Origin: an uncultured Nanoarchaeota archaeon
Lineage (GTDB): Archaea; Nanobdellota; Nanobdellia; Pacearchaeales; GW2011-AR1
Assembly (NCBI GenBank): GCA_963743615.1
Contig: CAVUQF010000003.1
Location: forward strand, 60,999-124,998
DNA length: 64,000 bases
Direction: 5' to 3'
A program made the translations under genes and the position numbers. Shown one piece after another: positions 5,035 through 61,215 of the stretch; positions within the stretch are counted from its first letter, which is position 1; every line of letters begins with the position of its first letter. The notes under the pieces are model-generated. The model saw only the letters and a list, made by a program, of their open reading frames with translations, did not search any database and was not told the DNA's origin.

Positions 5035-5585
5035 GTCTCAACACTGCGAGGAGTTTTCATCTTTTTATTTCCATGAGAATCAAAATATAAAATTTGGTCT
5101 ATTTCTATCTTCTTTCTTTTACTTGTTTTTCCAGAATCATATCCAATAGGGAAAACCGCTTCTAATTCCATTTTATCGGGGATTCTTAATGTTCTCTTTA
5201 TCATTTCATCATCAAAGTGACCAACCCAGCACGTGGATAATTTTTTATCTATCAAAGATAGCCAAAAATTTTCAATTGCAGCTCCTGCTTGTTGTCTAGA
5301 ATAAATTTTCCCCCTCTCTTTAAAGAGATTTGTCAATCTTGAAGGATCGGAGTAAACCACTACAAGATAATTTGCCGTTGCGATAAATGACTGCTCTGCG
5401 GCATCCGCAATTTTTTGTATTTTCTCCTTATCTTCTACGATGAGAAATTTCAACGTAAAATTACCTGCTGCACAAGGGGATGACCTTGCAGAATCAATCG
5501 CTTCAATAATTCTCCTCCAATCGGGTTTTTTGTTCTTGAAGTCTCGAACACTTTTTCTTGACTTTATTGCTTCGTCTATTTCCAT
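5031..5585 (-). CDS. Nitroreductase family protein
   Basis: 'KSRKSVRDF' N-terminal nitroreductase motif; 184 aa. Confidence 0.7.
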   Translation of the reverse strand: MEIDEAIKSRKSVRDFKNKKPDWRRIIEAIDSARSSPCAAGNFTLKFLIVEDKEKIQKIADAAEQSFIATANYLVVVYSDPSRLTNLFKERGKIYSRQQAGAAIENFWLSLIDKKLSTCWVGHFDDEMIKRTLRIPDKMELEAVFPIGYDSGKTSKRKKIEIDQILYFDSHGNKKMKTPRSVET

Positions 5586-9781: not shown

Positions 9782-10189
9782 TTATATTTTGCTTACGGGA
9801 CGTTTTGCTCCACATGCAAGGCAATGAATAAAAGTCATTCTGTCATCTTTTATTAACTCCGTGTCTGGTTTTCCACACTCTTTGCATAGCACAAATTCTC
9901 TTACATATACTTCGATTTTTTGATTAATTTTTGCACTTGGAACTTTTTGATTTAAAACTAATCTATCTCCCTCAATTTGCCCAGAGGATGCAAGCTCCTT
10001 CAGCAAAAATTTCTGAAAATGCTCCGGGTTTCTTCTTATATATGATGCTATCTGAAAAAAATTTGTTAATACTGTTTTCTTTCCCTCAAAGTGTCCCTCT
10101 ATTTTTGGAATTTCAAATCTTTCGCCATTTCCTTCTGGTTTTTTTATTTTTTTGAATGCATCTTCAAGTAGCTTTTCATAGGATTCCAT
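9782..10189 (-). CDS. eif2b: Translation initiation factor 2 beta subunit (aIF-2 beta)
   Basis: C4 zinc ribbon 'CKECGKPDTELIKDDRMTFIHCLACGA' and the eIF2beta/eIF5 domain. Confidence 0.8.
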   Translation of the reverse strand: MESYEKLLEDAFKKIKKPEGNGERFEIPKIEGHFEGKKTVLTNFFQIASYIRRNPEHFQKFLLKELASSGQIEGDRLVLNQKVPSAKINQKIEVYVREFVLCKECGKPDTELIKDDRMTFIHCLACGAKRPVSKI

Positions 10190-10254
10190 GATCTAGTTGT
10201 GGCAAGATAATTTATAAATGTTTTATAAGTTTAGCAGTATAATTTCGGGAAAGC

Positions 10255-14291: not shown

Positions 14292-14403
14292 AAATAGACT
14301 GCAGTGTAGAGGTTTTTATAATTTTATATATAGAAATATAGCAAGATTCTTTCTACTAACAAAGCTTTTAAATAAGTTTTATACCTTATCTGGATAATGA
14401 TGT

Positions 14404-14525
14404 GAGCCTATAGCTCAGCCAGGTTAGAGCACCGCTCTTATATGATTGCAGTTCATATGAACTGCATCTCTCCCAGATATGTCTAAGAGAGGCGGGGGTC
14501 CACGGTTCAAATCCGTGTAGGCTCA
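14404..14525 (+). tRNA. tRNA-Ile (anticodon UAU) with a 47-nt intron at the canonical 37/38 position
   Basis: Acceptor GAGCCTA/TAGGCTC, D-arm GCTC-AGCCAGGTTA-GAGC, anticodon stem CCGCT/GGCGG, loop C-T-TAT-A with the intron at 14443-14489, T-arm CACGG-TTCAAAT-CCGTG. Confidence 0.7.
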
Positions 14526-44801: not shown

Positions 44802-47138
44802 TTATCCTAGATAACTTCCACCAGAAGGGATTGAAACTCTTGCAGATCTTATGAAATTTTCTTCCATCTTTTTATATACTTCAAATGTTGATTTTGTCAC
44901 ACTTGGACGAACTTTATTTAGCGCTTCTTCAAAATGTTTCTTTTGAACATATTTTGCATCAGGGGACTCTCTTAGCGAAAGCATAGCGGCCTCTCTAGCG
45001 AATGCTTCCAGATCAGCGCCAGTATATCCTTCTGTTTGCTTGCTAAATTCTTTGAGTAACTCTTCTCTTTCTTTTTCGTTCAATAATTTCTTTCCATCCC
45101 CCAGGGGCATTTTTGCAGTATGAATTTTAAGGATGTTTTCTCTTGCTTTTTCAGTTGGAGCATCAACTAGCAAGATTTTATCAAATCTTCCTGGTCTTAG
45201 TAGTGCAGAATCAAGCATATCTGGACGGTTTGTAGCTCCAATAATAATAACATTATTCAAATTCTCTAGACCATCCATTTCTGCAAGCAACTGATTAAGG
45301 ACACGCTCTGTAACTTTTGTGCCCGTATCCATCCCCCTCTTTCCTGCTAATGCGTCTATTTCATCAAAGAAAATTATGCAAGGAGCAACCTGACGAGCTC
45401 TTTCAAATATTTTTCTGACCCCTTCTTCAGATTTTCCAACCCACATACTCAATAATGATGGACCTTTTACCTGAATGAAGTTTGCTTCTGATTCTGTTGC
45501 AACAGCTTTTGCTAACAGAGTTTTACCTGTTCCAGGAGGACCATAGAGAAGGATTCCTCTGGATGGACGAATTCCCATTCTTTCGAAACTTTCAGCACGT
45601 TTCATAGGCCATTCAACAGCTTCTTTAAGTTCTTGTTTGATGTTATCCAATCCTCCAACACTTTCCCATTCAATATTTGGATTCTCAACAAGAACTTCTC
45701 TCATTGCGCTAGGTCTGACTATTTTTAGGGCTTCTACAAAATCTTCATGTTTAACAATCATTTTTTCCAAAACTTCAGGGGGAATTTCTTCCTCCTTGTC
45801 GAGTTTTATTTGGGGGAGGAATTTTCTAAGAACATTCATTGCTGCCTCTTTTGTCAAGGCTTCCAGATCTGCTCCGACAAATCCATGAGTTACACTTGCC
45901 AATTCATTAAGATTTACGTTCTTTGCCATTGGCACACCTCTTGTATGAATCTTGAGAATTGATAATCTTCCTTCTTTTCTTGGAACATTTATTTCTATTT
46001 CTCTATCAAATCTTCCAGGCCTACGTAATGCAGGATCAATAGAATTAACTCTATTTGTAGCTCCAATAACAACAACTTTTCCTCTCGATTTTAATCCGTC
46101 CATCATGGTTAGTATCTGTGATACAACTCTTCTTTCGACTTCTCCAGTTGTTTCTTCTCTTTTTGGGGCAATTGCATCAATTTCATCTATGAATATGATC
46201 GATGGAGCTGTTTTTTCTGCTTCTTCAAATATATCTCTAATTTTCTTTTCAGATTCACCGTAGAACTTTGACATTATTTCCGGACCATTGAGAAGAATGA
46301 AGTTTGCTTCTGATTCTGTTGCAACAGCTTTTGCTAACAGAGTTTTACCTGTTCCAGGAGGACCATGAAGCAGGACTCCTTTTGGAGCTTCTATCCCTAA
46401 CTTTCTGAACAGTTCTGGGTGCTTTAATGGAATTTCCACCATTTCTCTTATTTTTCTTATTTCCTCACTTAACCCTCCAATATCCTCATAGTTTATCTCT
46501 GGGATATTTTCTTCTGAAACCTCCACAGCTTTTGAATTTAGAGTGACTTCTGTGTTTTCAGTTATTTTAACTGGTTGATTTGGATTTGTTGAAACAACGA
46601 TGAATCTTATTTGTGTTATTCCTCCACTGAAATTTCCAAAGCCCATTTTTCCAAGAATATCATTTAAATCTCCGAAAATGTCTCCCATGTCTCCAATGTC
46701 ATCAGACATCATATCCCTTCTTCTTTGAACTCCCCCCAATGCGATGATATCCCCTTTCATTACTGGCCTTCCTAGCAGTCCTCTTTTCAATCCTTCAGAA
46801 TCGCCCTGGATCATAACTCCTTGCTGTGCCGGTGCTATAATTATTTTTTTTGCTTCTTTGACATCTGCTTTTAGAACTGTTATGACATCACCGATTCCTG
46901 TTTTAGCATTCTTTCTCATGATTCCATCAATTCTTATTATCCCTTCTCCTACATCTGCAGGATATGCACGGTCTGCAATTGCAATTGTCTCCCTTCCACC
47001 TTTGATTATTATTGGATCTCCTCTTCGGATGTCCAACTCTCTCATGATTTCTGAGTCTATCCTTGCGACCCCCTTATATGCATCGTCTTGCAATGCTTCC
47101 ACAACTTTCAATTGAATATTTTCTTTTTTAGTTGCCAT
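44802..47138 (-). CDS. cdc48: Cdc48/VCP-like AAA+ ATPase (double AAA)
   Basis: Two '[17 protein letters not shown]' Walker A motifs, two DExx boxes, and an N-terminal double-psi barrel. Confidence 0.9.
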
Positions 47139-47496
47139 GTTTTATCTCCCCTTTTGCGAGTTCCTCAAAGTTTAGCGAAATTCTTCCTATATCTTCAAAG
47201 CATAATCTTACCATATCGTTCATCATTTTTCTTTGTGATTCCATAAAAGATACAATTTCCTTTGGAATTGAAACTGCGTAGCTGTTTCCGACAAGCCTCA
47301 TTTTGACACTAAACTCTTTATTTCTTAGCCCCATAAATTTATTGTATTCTTCCATATCATGTGGATGAAATATTCTATCATTACACTTTGGGCATACGAC
47401 TGCTCTTAATAGAAATCCGTTCTTCGCTACGCTTACCTTTTTCATCTCCGTATTGCATTTGTTGCAAAGTATGGTATTGTCGAATACGTCTGCCAT
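47128..47496 (-). CDS. Zn-ribbon plus SpoVT/AbrB-like putative transcription regulator (122 aa); overlaps cdc48 by 11 nt
   Basis: 'CNKCNTE...CPKCN' zinc ribbon followed by 'VKMRLVGNSYAVSIPKEIV', a swapped-hairpin AbrB-like segment. The upstream part of the listed 168-aa ORF is a translated promoter repeat. Confidence 0.5.
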   Translation of the reverse strand: MADVFDNTILCNKCNTEMKKVSVAKNGFLLRAVVCPKCNDRIFHPHDMEEYNKFMGLRNKEFSVKMRLVGNSYAVSIPKEIVSFMESQRKMMNDMVRLCFEDIGRISLNFEELAKGEIKHGN

Positions 47497-47529
47497 TGTG
47501 TATATGTTTATGTATACACATGGTTGGAT

Positions 47530-47543
47530 ATATTTATAAATAT
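47530..47543 (-). promoter_or_regulatory. Palindromic TATA-like element ATATTTATAAATAT, 34-47 nt upstream of the regulator ATG
   Basis: Perfect 14-bp palindrome containing a TTTATAAAT TATA box. Confidence 0.4.
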
Positions 47544-47560
47544 TTCGGTGCGGGTGGCTT

Positions 47561-47611
47561 TGCATATAAATGTGATTCTGCACATAAATGAAGATAGTTT
47601 GCACATAAATA
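47561..47611. promoter_or_regulatory. Three direct repeats TGCA(Y)ATAAAT(G/A) spaced 18 and 21 bp apart, upstream of the regulator/cdc48 operon
   Basis: The three copies are at 47561-47572, 47579-47590 and 47600-47611. Confidence 0.45.
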
Positions 47612-47826
47612 ATAGAACTTAAAATTTGAGGCAAAGAGATTTTGCGCGTCGGATTGGATGCTTGAAACTTGTCCGCTAATCCGATATTTATCCCTTCTCC
47701 TAGCGTAGGAGATAAATGCTTACTGAAATGCCTAACCTTACCGCGATTTCACGCGCGTATATACAACCATAAGAATTTCCTCCTATCTTTGTGATTTAGG
47801 TACAAAGCTCAATTTCTTTATAAATA

Positions 47827-48024
47827 TTATTTCTTTCTTTTATTCCTAATTAGGAGAATACATATGACTACTGCCAATATAGAAATTCCAAACATAATCC
47901 AAGAGTATAAAATTGGATTACGACCTTGAATAATTTTCCAAACATTGATTATACTCATAAGACCAACACCTATCCAGAAAGCAACAGCCCATTCTAATTG
48001 TCTTTTGTTTTTCATTACCAGCAA
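47827..48024 (-). CDS. Small membrane protein (65 aa, 2 TM helices)
   Basis: Hydrophobic ORF. Confidence 0.4.
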   Translation of the reverse strand: MLVMKNKRQLEWAVAFWIGVGLMSIINVWKIIQGRNPILYSWIMFGISILAVVICILLIRNKRKK

Positions 48025-48298
48025 ATTAAGATAGGGTATTTTAAAAAGCTGTCTAAAATCTACAGCTTCTTTTTTGGAAGAAGCCTCTTTACTAGTCTAA
48101 TTTTATCTCTTTTATTTCTAGCCTTGATTTTTCTCATGAAGACTTTTCTTGATTCTCTCCTTCCGCCTGTTTTGAGTTTCATTTTATTTGCAATAAATCT
48201 CCATTTAATAATTTAATGTTTCCAACTTTTAATTGAATTTCTTTGTTTATGGATTTATAATCCAAAATTATTAAAAGGTTAGAAGTGTCTTTTTATAA

Positions 48299-60711: not shown

Positions 60712-61215
60712 CTACTTTACGTATAAATAAACATGACCCAGTCTTTTTTTAGGTTCCCATTTTGGGAATGTCCAGGTGTTTGAAATTATTTTCGTTCCTT
60801 TTTTCAATTCTTTTCTAAGCTTCTCTTCAAGTTCCGGCATTATGTAACTTATTTGGAAGGAAGTGATTATGTTGAATTTTGAAAAATCTTGCTTGAAGAA
60901 ATTTTTCCAATGTATAAATGCATTATTTTGCAGCCCTAATTTCTTTATCTTCATTTTGGAAAGCCAGACAAGGAAGGGATTTATTTCAAAACCGTGGGCC
61001 TCTGCCCCATATTTTGCAAATTCAATTACAATTTTTCCGTCTCCAGAACCAAGATCCGCCATTTTCTGTCCTTTCTTTATATCTGCAAGTTTAATTATCT
61101 CTTCCACTGCTTTGTTTGAGCTTGGCTGAAAGGGAGCTCCAAAGAAAAATGAGGAGAGCCATGAAAAGAAAATTAGGAGTATTATTATAAGAATAACAAG
61201 CAGGATGTTAAACAT
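60712..61215 (-). CDS. Membrane-anchored class I SAM-dependent methyltransferase (167 aa)
   Basis: N-terminal TM helix then 'ADLGSGDGKIVIE' motif I. The ORF-track extension to 61500 overlaps the topA start and is discounted. Confidence 0.55.
   Translation of the reverse strand: MFNILLVILIIILLIFFSWLSSFFFGAPFQPSSNKAVEEIIKLADIKKGQKMADLGSGDGKIVIEFAKYGAEAHGFEINPFLVWLSKMKIKKLGLQNNAFIHWKNFFKQDFSKFNIITSFQISYIMPELEEKLRKELKKGTKIISNTWTFPKWEPKKRLGHVYLYVK

Follow-up and report, generated by a model that had tools for sequence, protein, structure and literature searches.

The Zn-ribbon–cdc48 operon and its control region

The present study concerns the DNA upstream of a two-gene operon on contig CAVUQF010000003.1 of an uncultured Nanoarchaeota archaeon. 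The 64,000 nucleotides (nt) that were analysed (contig positions 60,999 to 124,998; G+C content 34.6%) are referred to as the window, and coordinates are those of the window unless another locus is named. The operon comprises the gene of a small Zn-ribbon protein and the downstream cdc48 gene (Table 1). Both are located on the minus strand, and the repeats and the palindrome introduced below are given in plus-strand letters unless stated otherwise. The stop codon of the Zn-ribbon gene begins at 47128 and the ATG of cdc48 is found at 47138, which results in an overlap of 11 nt, exactly as proposed in an earlier reading of the open reading frames (ORFs; hereafter the original prediction). For comparison, 80 orthologous loci were taken from species-representative genomes and their upstream regions were aligned on the TATA box. 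In at least 57 of the 80 loci the two genes remain adjacent, with cdc48 starting between -41 and +40 nt from the stop codon of the Zn-ribbon gene, thereby corroborating the proposed coupling.

The start codon of the Zn-ribbon gene was established from 28 aligned homologues (68–83% identical), which were found in Pacearchaeota, Woesearchaeota and Nanoarchaeota bins and thereby assign the window to a DPANN archaeon. Since all 28 begin with M-x-D-I/V-F-D-N, we accept the start MADVF with its ATG at 47496 and regard the 168-amino-acid (aa) ORF at this position as an over-extension, in agreement with the original prediction; the DNA upstream of this start is non-coding promoter DNA. Our analysis suggests that the segment from 47497 to 47611 represents the control region of the operon and that it is built of three layers, namely a core promoter, a candidate operator of GTATAC type and a generic upstream module of three boxes, a reading that we hold to be reasonably probable.

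Table 1. Position of the genes and of the predicted control elements of the Zn-ribbon–cdc48 operon in the window.
Feature	Position	Strand	Basis or remark
cdc48/VAT-type double AAA+ ATPase gene, 778-aa ORF	44802..47138	-	Pfam CDC48_N, CDC48_2 and two AAA domains
Zn-ribbon protein gene, 122 aa, with short MazE/AbrB-like beta-hairpin motif (VKMRLVGNSYAVSIPKEIV)	47128..47496	-	ORF, alignment, profile and fold searches
GTATAC-like box 2 (minus strand CATATACAC)	47498..47506	-	just before the ATG
Predicted transcription start, about 29–32 nt from the TATA start	47508..47513	-	spacing in orthologues and at the promoter at 10218
GTATAC box 1 (minus strand TGTGTATACAT), palindrome, candidate operator	47510..47520	-	about -1 to -10 from the predicted start
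TATA box (minus strand TTTATAAA), inside the palindrome 47530–47543	47533..47540	-	same place in 78 of 81 orthologues
B recognition element (BRE; minus strand CCGAAA), 8 nt downstream of the proximal box	47543..47548	-	conservation in orthologues
Proximal box with GCC extension (minus strand ATTTATATGCAAAGCC)	47556..47571	-	consensus TTTATGTGCAAAGCC
Middle box (minus strand ATTTATGTGCAGAA)	47576..47589	-	identical to consensus aATTTATGTGCAgAA; 18 nt upstream of the proximal box
Distal box (minus strand ATTTATGTGCAAAC)	47597..47610	-	agrees with ATTTATGTGCAA, the consensus from 41 arrays; starts 21 nt ahead of the middle box

The core promoter and the predicted transcription start

Upstream of the ATG, the minus strand reads CCGAAA, a single T and TTTATAAA (47548–47533), i.e. 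a purine-rich BRE followed by an A/T-only TATA box of 8 bp. Of 81 orthologous loci, 78 share this arrangement, with the BRE in the form (C/A)(C/A)(G/A)AAA directly 5' of the TATA box. Judged by its sequence, the core promoter is an ordinary, strong and canonical archaeal BRE/TATA promoter. The original prediction had drawn attention to a 14-bp palindrome, ATATTTATAAATAT at 47530–47543, with an embedded TATA box. The palindrome is indeed perfect and does contain the TATA box, with the CCGAAA element preceding it. Its symmetry is preserved in the closest relatives only (L002, L082) and the TATA region of most orthologues reads TTTAAATAG; the palindromy appears to be incidental, as a by-product of a symmetric TATA box.

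In three orthologues (L013, L022, L043) the ATG is located 30–33 nt from the start of the TATA box, thus implying leaderless mRNAs. A promoter of the window itself served as calibration of this distance for the organism under study: the gene at 9782–10189 is preceded by a consensus BRE/TATA (AAAACATTTATAAA) at 10218 on the minus strand and its ATG follows 29 nt from the TATA start, which likewise implies a leaderless mRNA. Based on the leaderless orthologues and on the spacing at 10218, we place the transcription start of the operon near 47511, and its 5' leader would accordingly comprise about 12–17 nt.

The GTATAC palindromes as candidate operator

Two GTATAC-type palindromes, which escaped the original prediction, are located between the TATA box and the ATG, and they are the element that does track the gene. 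The orthologous promoters follow a common layout, (C/A)(C/A)(G/A)AAA-N-ATTTAAATAG, then TGTGTATACA, then 4–6 nt and finally GTATA(T/C)AC, of which CCGAAATATTTATAAATATATCCAACCATGTGTATACATAAACATATACACAATG is the window version. Of 81 orthologous promoters, 78 (96%) contain the GTATAC boxes, which are essentially missing from control promoters of the same loci. A scan of all 1.35 Mb of archaeal DNA that was fetched yielded 71 occurrences of a TATA box plus two GTATAC-like boxes, every one of them upstream of the Zn-ribbon gene, which follows within 520 nt in 69 cases and farther off in the other two. Within the window, the pattern GTATAC-N3-9-RTATAYAC has one match, versus 0.00 expected. This co-occurrence with a single gene (71 of 71) is what one would look for in an autoregulatory operator, and by its sequence and distribution the GTATAC pair is the best candidate for an operator that is specific for the operon and possibly autoregulatory.

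Archaeal regulators with binding sites in the interval from TATA box to transcription start, such as Phr, MDR1 and TrmB-like proteins, usually repress. Box 1 would occupy this very position and box 2 would lie just past the start, and the most likely scenario is that a dimeric repressor on the GTATAC operator would block the recruitment of RNA polymerase; the Zn-ribbon protein itself could be this repressor. The closest parallel is provided by Phr/HSR1, the heat-shock regulators of Pyrococcus and Archaeoglobus. Their repression targets are hsp20 and an AAA+ (Cdc48-type) ATPase, and the Archaeoglobus regulator is encoded by the first gene of the operon to which the cdc48-type gene belongs. Both systems share a palindromic (candidate) operator between TATA box and start of the cdc48 unit and a small putative regulator as first gene, but Phr and HSR1 are winged-helix proteins that recognize a different palindrome, and the Zn-ribbon protein has no detectable relation to them. 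The combination of the GTATAC operator with the pairing of Zn-ribbon gene and cdc48 suggests that the main unfoldase of these reduced genomes has either a control circuit of its own or a cofactor.

A further element was observed in the orthologues. At least about 25 of the 80 loci (L008, L018, L021, L024, L028, L053, L054, L063, L068, L078 and others) possess a conserved 5' leader between the GTATAC boxes and the ATG, which the window lacks. It consists of (C)ACCTCTTTTCAACC, a hairpin, ATAATCA and the ATG. The hairpin stem varies on both sides between species (GCCGTGTC/GACACGGC, GCCACGTC/GGCGTGGC, CGCCC/GGGCG), and the sequence CACCUC is similar to the 3' end of the 16S rRNA. From its sequence, the leader is a candidate cis-regulatory RNA of the operon.

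Conservation of the three repeats

Farther upstream, the original prediction had recognized three copies of TGCAYATAAAT, and all of them are real: TGCATATAAAT is located at 47561 and TGCACATAAAT at 47579 and 47600, with start-to-start spacings of 18 and 21 nt. They represent the only exact matches in the 64-kb window, versus 0.16 expected, and none of 100 shuffles reached three copies; the motif thus clearly exceeds chance in the window. The TATA box starts 29 nt after the TTAT of the proximal box, the end of which is 8 nt away from the BRE.

Two close relatives, found via their proteins, retain all three boxes with diverged spacers, namely L082 (92% protein identity) and L085/L154 (83%). Because the boxes were kept while the spacers diverged, we conclude that the repeats are under selection and do not reflect chance, which substantiates the view of a conserved, phased element upstream of the promoter. 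Other relatives of about 83% identity (L003, L004) exhibit only a degenerate box remnant, and comparison of the sequences accordingly characterizes the boxes as a selected element, yet as no constant companion of the Zn-ribbon gene.

The orthologous promoters give the same divided answer. A box of the type (T)TTAT(R)(Y)RCAAAG(CC) occurs at a fixed distance of -25/-24 from the TATA start in 14 of 78 promoters, with a second copy at -43 in L012 and L033 and a similar pair visible in L029. Altogether, about 25% of the orthologous promoters harbor at least one box and about 75% are devoid of the array; the comparison recommended with the original prediction thus confirms the boxes for close relatives and fails to extend them to the majority of orthologues. 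A search for a regulon within the 64-kb window retrieved neither the three-box nor the GTATAC motif at any other place, and the window's own aIF-1A promoter is free of the box. Across the 0.49 Mb made up by the window together with the 80 orthologous loci, the layout of proximal box plus TATA box is almost restricted to this operon.

A three-box module at unrelated promoters

A different picture emerged from metagenome contigs, which were scanned for two adjacent boxes. At least 120 loci were found, and 80 of them with 99 matches were examined. The same triple array with one consensus is present in 41 distinct loci, from which consensus and geometry were built: ATTTATGTGCAA, about 8 nt, aATTTATGTGCAgAA, 3–4 nt and TTTATGTGCAAAGCC. 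The spacing from middle to proximal box amounts to 18 nt in 37 of the 41 arrays, the one from distal to middle box to 20 nt in 24 and to 21 nt in 17 arrays. The start of TATA-like sequences peaks sharply at +29/+30 from the proximal box (28 of 47 TATA-like matches), and with a strict pattern it is found at +27 to +32 in 20 of 40 arrays. With its geometry of 21, 18 and 29 nt, the window harbors a canonical member of this family.

Only 3 of the 99 matches, and 3 or 4 of the 41 arrays, precede the Zn-ribbon gene. Domain searches of the downstream genes identified thermosome (twice), GrpE, a CBS-pair protein, the protease PrsW, SET, SNase, an exonuclease, ribosomal protein L21e and aIF-1A; thioredoxin-like, TFB, HerA-like and IlvD-like genes were judged by sequence only. 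In one case the gene downstream of the array encodes 5S rRNA and begins where the transcription start is expected. The array-bearing contigs that could be assigned by exact-sequence look-up belong to Woesearchaeota (L166) and Hadesarchaea (L112, L181, L125/L140), and the G+C content of the tabulated loci ranges from about 27% to 54%. The CBS gene with the array comes from Hadesarchaea (L140) and encodes a CBS-only protein, which we regard as a lead rather than a test. A search of 2.9 million viral contigs retrieved no match, and a viral origin of the array was dismissed on this ground. Queries of the open-access literature by motif string and by topic retrieved no description of this motif.

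The original prediction had interpreted the repeats as cooperative operator sites or tandem promoter elements that probably control a regulator–cdc48 operon, possibly with autoregulation. A private autoregulatory operator should accompany its gene and be missing from other promoters, whereas the repeats occur in about a quarter of the orthologous promoters and at many unrelated genes. As the module is generic and absent from about 75% of the orthologous promoters, autoregulation via the repeats is not the economical reading. By their sequence and distribution, the three repeats are probably the docking site of a general factor.

Variants of the array were noticed in several loci. In those of Hadesarchaea, further repeats come after an ATGTG-type array; they have the same frame and a different centre (ACTTTTTAAACAG, ACTTTAGGAGCAAAA, ACTTTGGGGGCAAAGCC), and the last of them again ends with CAAAGCC (L181 at about 1710–1790, L112 at about 5205–5260, L122, and L087 on the minus strand); this suggests a family of box types with the constant sequence frame TTT-N5-CA(A/G)A. 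In L207 (7780–8080), a Woesearchaeota contig whose thermosome promoter lacks the array, one proximal-type box (TTTATGTGCAAAGCC) is located upstream of a 65-aa ORF (MGQQEVFDFLRKNEGKWWTSKEIPKELNTSVGSVTTTLTKLRKREEIQF...) that is not annotated; to the eye, the product of this ORF has the look of a small winged-helix DNA-binding protein. Tandem arrays of 21 nt and 16 nt with the same core (L102, L110, L139, L158, L176, L120) were considered as iterons that could lead to the binding protein, and are treated as chance matches of the pattern. The only one whose neighbours were inspected, L158, has a bacterial-looking contig and a long ORF with N-terminal signal, which we take to be a bacterial TonB-dependent receptor.

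Comparison with archaeal upstream activating sites

The module is located at a fixed distance from the BRE and directed towards the gene, and its boxes are conserved while spacers and flanks are not. Because this position and the fixed geometry fit, we favor an interpretation as upstream activating site (UAS). Archaeal regulators bound upstream of the BRE usually activate, with Ptr2, TFB-RF1, EarA and GvpE as examples. Known sites comprise those of Ptr2 at rb2 and fdxA of Methanocaldococcus, of TFB-RF1 in Pyrococcus, of EarA in multiple copies at the archaellum promoter and the UAS of GvpE. Accordingly, the three boxes would be occupied by a head-to-tail oligomer of a putative sequence-specific protein, whose contact with TFB/TBP would aid their assembly on the adjacent BRE/TATA.

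The HhpR UAS of Pyrococcus yayanosii is an archaeal site of this general kind and contains the sequence CATATAAA (PMC11705074), which also occurs in the proximal box of the window. The module resembles the sites of Ptr2, TFB-RF1, EarA, GvpE and HhpR in being placed directly upstream of BRE/TATA, gene-directed and in several copies at a defined distance. It differs from them in its box sequence, which is not known to match any of their motifs, and in its composition of three head-to-tail boxes, each with a 3' extension of its own and with a near-invariant geometry (18, 20/21 and 29/30 nt). Moreover, the known archaeal UAS serve narrow regulons of single lineages, whereas the module is found in two phyla at functionally unrelated promoters.

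This wide distribution is compatible with a more far-reaching, tentative scenario, to which we would give somewhat less than even chances, namely that the array is a portable cross-phylum enhancer of Archaea, i.e. a rigid platform of three sites 8 nt upstream of the BRE that is recognized by a factor common to DPANN and Hadesarchaea. Any promoter that acquires such a platform would assemble the transcription machinery more efficiently, and the factor could be a dedicated activator or a protein related to TBP/TFB. To our knowledge, gene regulation has not been studied experimentally in DPANN and Hadesarchaea, which are largely uncultivated. If the scenario is true, the array would be the first regulatory element with a defined regulon for these lineages and a bait for the corresponding factor. 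Irrespective of the scenario, a module of 55 bp with near-invariant geometry, shared by two phyla and present at genes for chaperones, translation, transcription factors and rRNA, provides a testable entry point; it may be used as bait for its binding factor, for the prediction of co-regulated genes in metagenome-assembled genomes and as a candidate part of strong promoters.

Several observations weigh against our reading of the control region. A strict TATA match at +27 to +32 is seen in no more than about half of the arrays, and in a smaller share of those from the GC-richer loci of Hadesarchaea. The downstream genes are without a clear common functional theme, and no array was detected in six Woesearchaeota thermosome promoters (130 kb) that had been picked regardless of the motif, so that there is no fixed regulon. 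In a few loci (L162, L194) arrays stand head to head and leave no room for a promoter. The spacers are near-identical across loci of one lineage (L112, L127, L135, L181), which hints at a copy-and-paste spread. Finally, the Zn-ribbon protein may lack any DNA binding.

A heat-shock or proteostasis regulon, as one might derive from thermosome, GrpE, cdc48 and the thioredoxin-like gene, was also considered and rejected on account of the six thermosome promoters; it is further weakened by the arrays at the genes for 5S rRNA, L21e, aIF-1A and the IlvD-like protein.

The Zn-ribbon protein and the array

The original prediction had assigned the product of the first gene to SpoVT/AbrB-type DNA-binding proteins, but this label is weak. 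All 28 members of the family match PF04014, but the matches always stay below the gathering score, with E-values no better than 4.9e-4, and they cover about 16 residues, i.e. the first beta-hairpin only. The window protein scores 19.8 bits against a cut-off of 24.7 with residues 67–82, which correspond to profile positions 2–17 of 48, so that neither the score nor the extent of the whole domain is reached. A match to the NCBIfam family doc_partner scores 23.1 versus a cut-off of 55.9. The AlphaFold2 monomer (predicted local distance difference test score 71.8) contains a Zn-ribbon, a helix, a beta-hairpin at residues 65–76 and a long helix, and hairpin plus helix make up at most half a swapped-hairpin beta-barrel. 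From the PDB, Foldseek retrieved only small Zn-ribbon proteins (best E-value 0.048), and a sequence search of the PDB yielded nothing significant. The sequence thus lends weak support to an AbrB-type regulator, and the gene at the head of the operon may encode either a transcription factor or a cofactor of Cdc48. Two insignificant similarities were recorded as well: 23 of the 28 family members have weak sub-threshold matches to PF18439, a ubiquitin-binding zinc finger, and the family profile aligns weakly (E-value 0.03) with a stretch of the thermosome alpha subunit.

These results bear on the proposal that the Zn-ribbon/AbrB-like protein binds the three repeats, autoregulates its operon and acts as a global regulator of the other array promoters. 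In its favor, the array is enriched at this operon, where about 25% of the orthologous promoters have at least one box compared with roughly one array per 50–100 kb elsewhere; the Zn-ribbon gene accounts for the 3 or 4 of 41 arrays mentioned above, and thermosome, GrpE, PrsW and a thioredoxin-like gene are among the array-bearing genes of proteostasis. The MazE/AbrB-like motif is common to all 28 members, and the core of the box, TGTGCA, is one base away from the half-site TGTGTA of the GTATAC palindrome, with many orthologues reading TTTATGTGTATACA. The proposal is difficult to reconcile with the absence of the array from 75% of the orthologous promoters while the GTATAC boxes are kept in 96%, and with the arrays of Hadesarchaea, where the named matches include no homologue of the Zn-ribbon protein. 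The AbrB assignment is sub-threshold and not seconded by the fold search, and the tight coupling with cdc48 suits a cofactor equally well. We consider this proposal unlikely.

Two well-known systems could be invoked as models for such a circuit. Ss-LrpB of Saccharolobus solfataricus binds three regularly spaced boxes in its own control region and is autoregulated, and the operon under study shares with it three phased sites upstream of the gene of a small putative DNA-binding protein, in line with the cooperative binding assumed in the original prediction. However, the boxes of Ss-LrpB are 15-bp palindromes read by a protein of the Lrp family and private to its regulon, whereas the array under study is generic and composed of direct repeats, and the first gene of the operon does not resemble Lrp. 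MraZ, a member of the AbrB superfamily, is encoded by the first gene of the bacterial dcw operon and binds direct repeats in its own promoter. If the AbrB label holds, first position in an operon, an AbrB-type fold and direct repeats would be shared features; MraZ, in turn, is bacterial, recognizes TGGGN repeats with a spacing of about 10 bp and has two full AbrB-like domains, compared with a sub-threshold motif of 16 residues.

Mobile-element and TATA-like interpretations of the array

The patchy presence of the array among orthologous promoters and the near-identical spacers at different loci of one lineage could also be understood if it were the footprint or end of a mobile or copy-and-paste element, such as the subterminal sites of a transposase or integrase or the end of an element akin to miniature inverted-repeat transposable elements (MITEs), that inserts just upstream of BRE/TATA and has no dedicated cellular regulator. 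One example is the pair L166 (10890–10960) and L194 (10580–10680), which are identical as far as 10 nt beyond the array, after which L166 continues into BRE/TATA and the TFB gene and L194 into an inverted array. In L162 (1689–1765) two arrays stand head to head at a distance of 9 nt. Both patterns could stem from arrays that underwent rearrangement or from a dispersed repeat at which the assembly was joined. The array of L153 abuts an apparent 3' half of a tRNA. In the window, a degenerate inverted copy (ATTTAGGTACAAAGC) at 47794–47808 would bound a unit of 254 bp that includes a GC-rich island (47612–47830, core 47644–47757; located between the repeats and a 65-aa membrane ORF), and the window is about 500 bp longer here than L003–L005.

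Nevertheless, just one array, lacking an inverted partner, was found in most of the loci whose flanks exceed 5 kb on either side, which led us to reject MITE or transposon ends with terminal repeats. No target-site duplication was seen in the flanks of the putative ends in the window, and its putative right end is an 80% match only (15-mer), at a wrong distance from its TATA box. The array, but not the GC island, is retained in L082 and L154, and the viral contigs searched are free of the array. Distant orthologues display diverged, lineage-specific variants of the box (ACACAAAGCC, GTGCAAGCC) at exactly the same position, as is expected for an old, evolving binding site. An origin as mobile element is thus quite improbable in our view, and the generic docking site remains the preferred interpretation.

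The sequence of the box itself gives rise to a further alternative, since it resembles a TATA box with two A-to-G changes (TTTATGTG versus TTTATATA), and in the proximal box of the window a single position differs from the TATA consensus. The boxes might accordingly be degenerate TATA boxes that act as tandem weak promoters or as a local reservoir of TBP/TFB; a divergent transcript through the GC-rich island would then originate from the distal box as read on the opposite strand (CACATAAATAA). The island begins about 35–40 nt after the distal box on the plus strand, a divergent 35-aa ORF of L082 starts about 47 nt from it, two loci of Hadesarchaea (L112, L181) contain real-looking TATA boxes with the same frame (ACTTTTTTAACAAAGCC), and the sequence shared by the HhpR UAS and the proximal box fits as well. 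However, G/C pairs within a TATA box disfavour the binding of TBP, and the boxes contain such pairs. GTGCA and the box-specific 3' extensions (AA, GAA, AAGCC) are better conserved than the T-rich part, no conserved BRE is found beside the boxes, and the GC island is neither conserved in relatives nor significantly structured. Degenerate TATA boxes are hence a very unlikely explanation of the array, although the resemblance may point to a TBP/TFB-related reader of the boxes or to a weak role as tandem promoter.

Additional features of the window

A role of the GC-rich island as non-coding RNA or as part of the module was examined and discarded. Its core retrieved nothing from Rfam at gathering score and nothing convincing at E-values up to 10, the z-scores of folding are -1.03 for the plus and +0.49 for the minus strand and thus indicate no significant fold, and no relatives were found in about 200 fetched loci, including the two close relatives that keep the array. 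The island might be the remnant of a gene, an insertion peculiar to this lineage or a transcript without structure. On the minus strand it is preceded by a good TATA box (47827–47817), AGGAGG and an ORF of 10 codons (MVVYTRVKSR, ATG at 47771).

A very basic 40-aa ORF (MKLKTGGRRESRKVFMRKIKARNKRDK...) is located at 48060–48182 on the minus strand. In L003, L004, L005, L083 and L084 its counterpart (55–66% identity) directly precedes the Zn-ribbon gene, and in the window the ORF is parted from the promoter by the roughly 500 extra bp that comprise the array, the GC island and the 65-aa membrane ORF. At a different site of the window (14404–14525, plus strand), Rfam identified a tRNA of 122 nt that presumably contains an intron, since it is not reported by ARAGORN; a BRE/TATA motif starts at 14367, 37 nt upstream of it.

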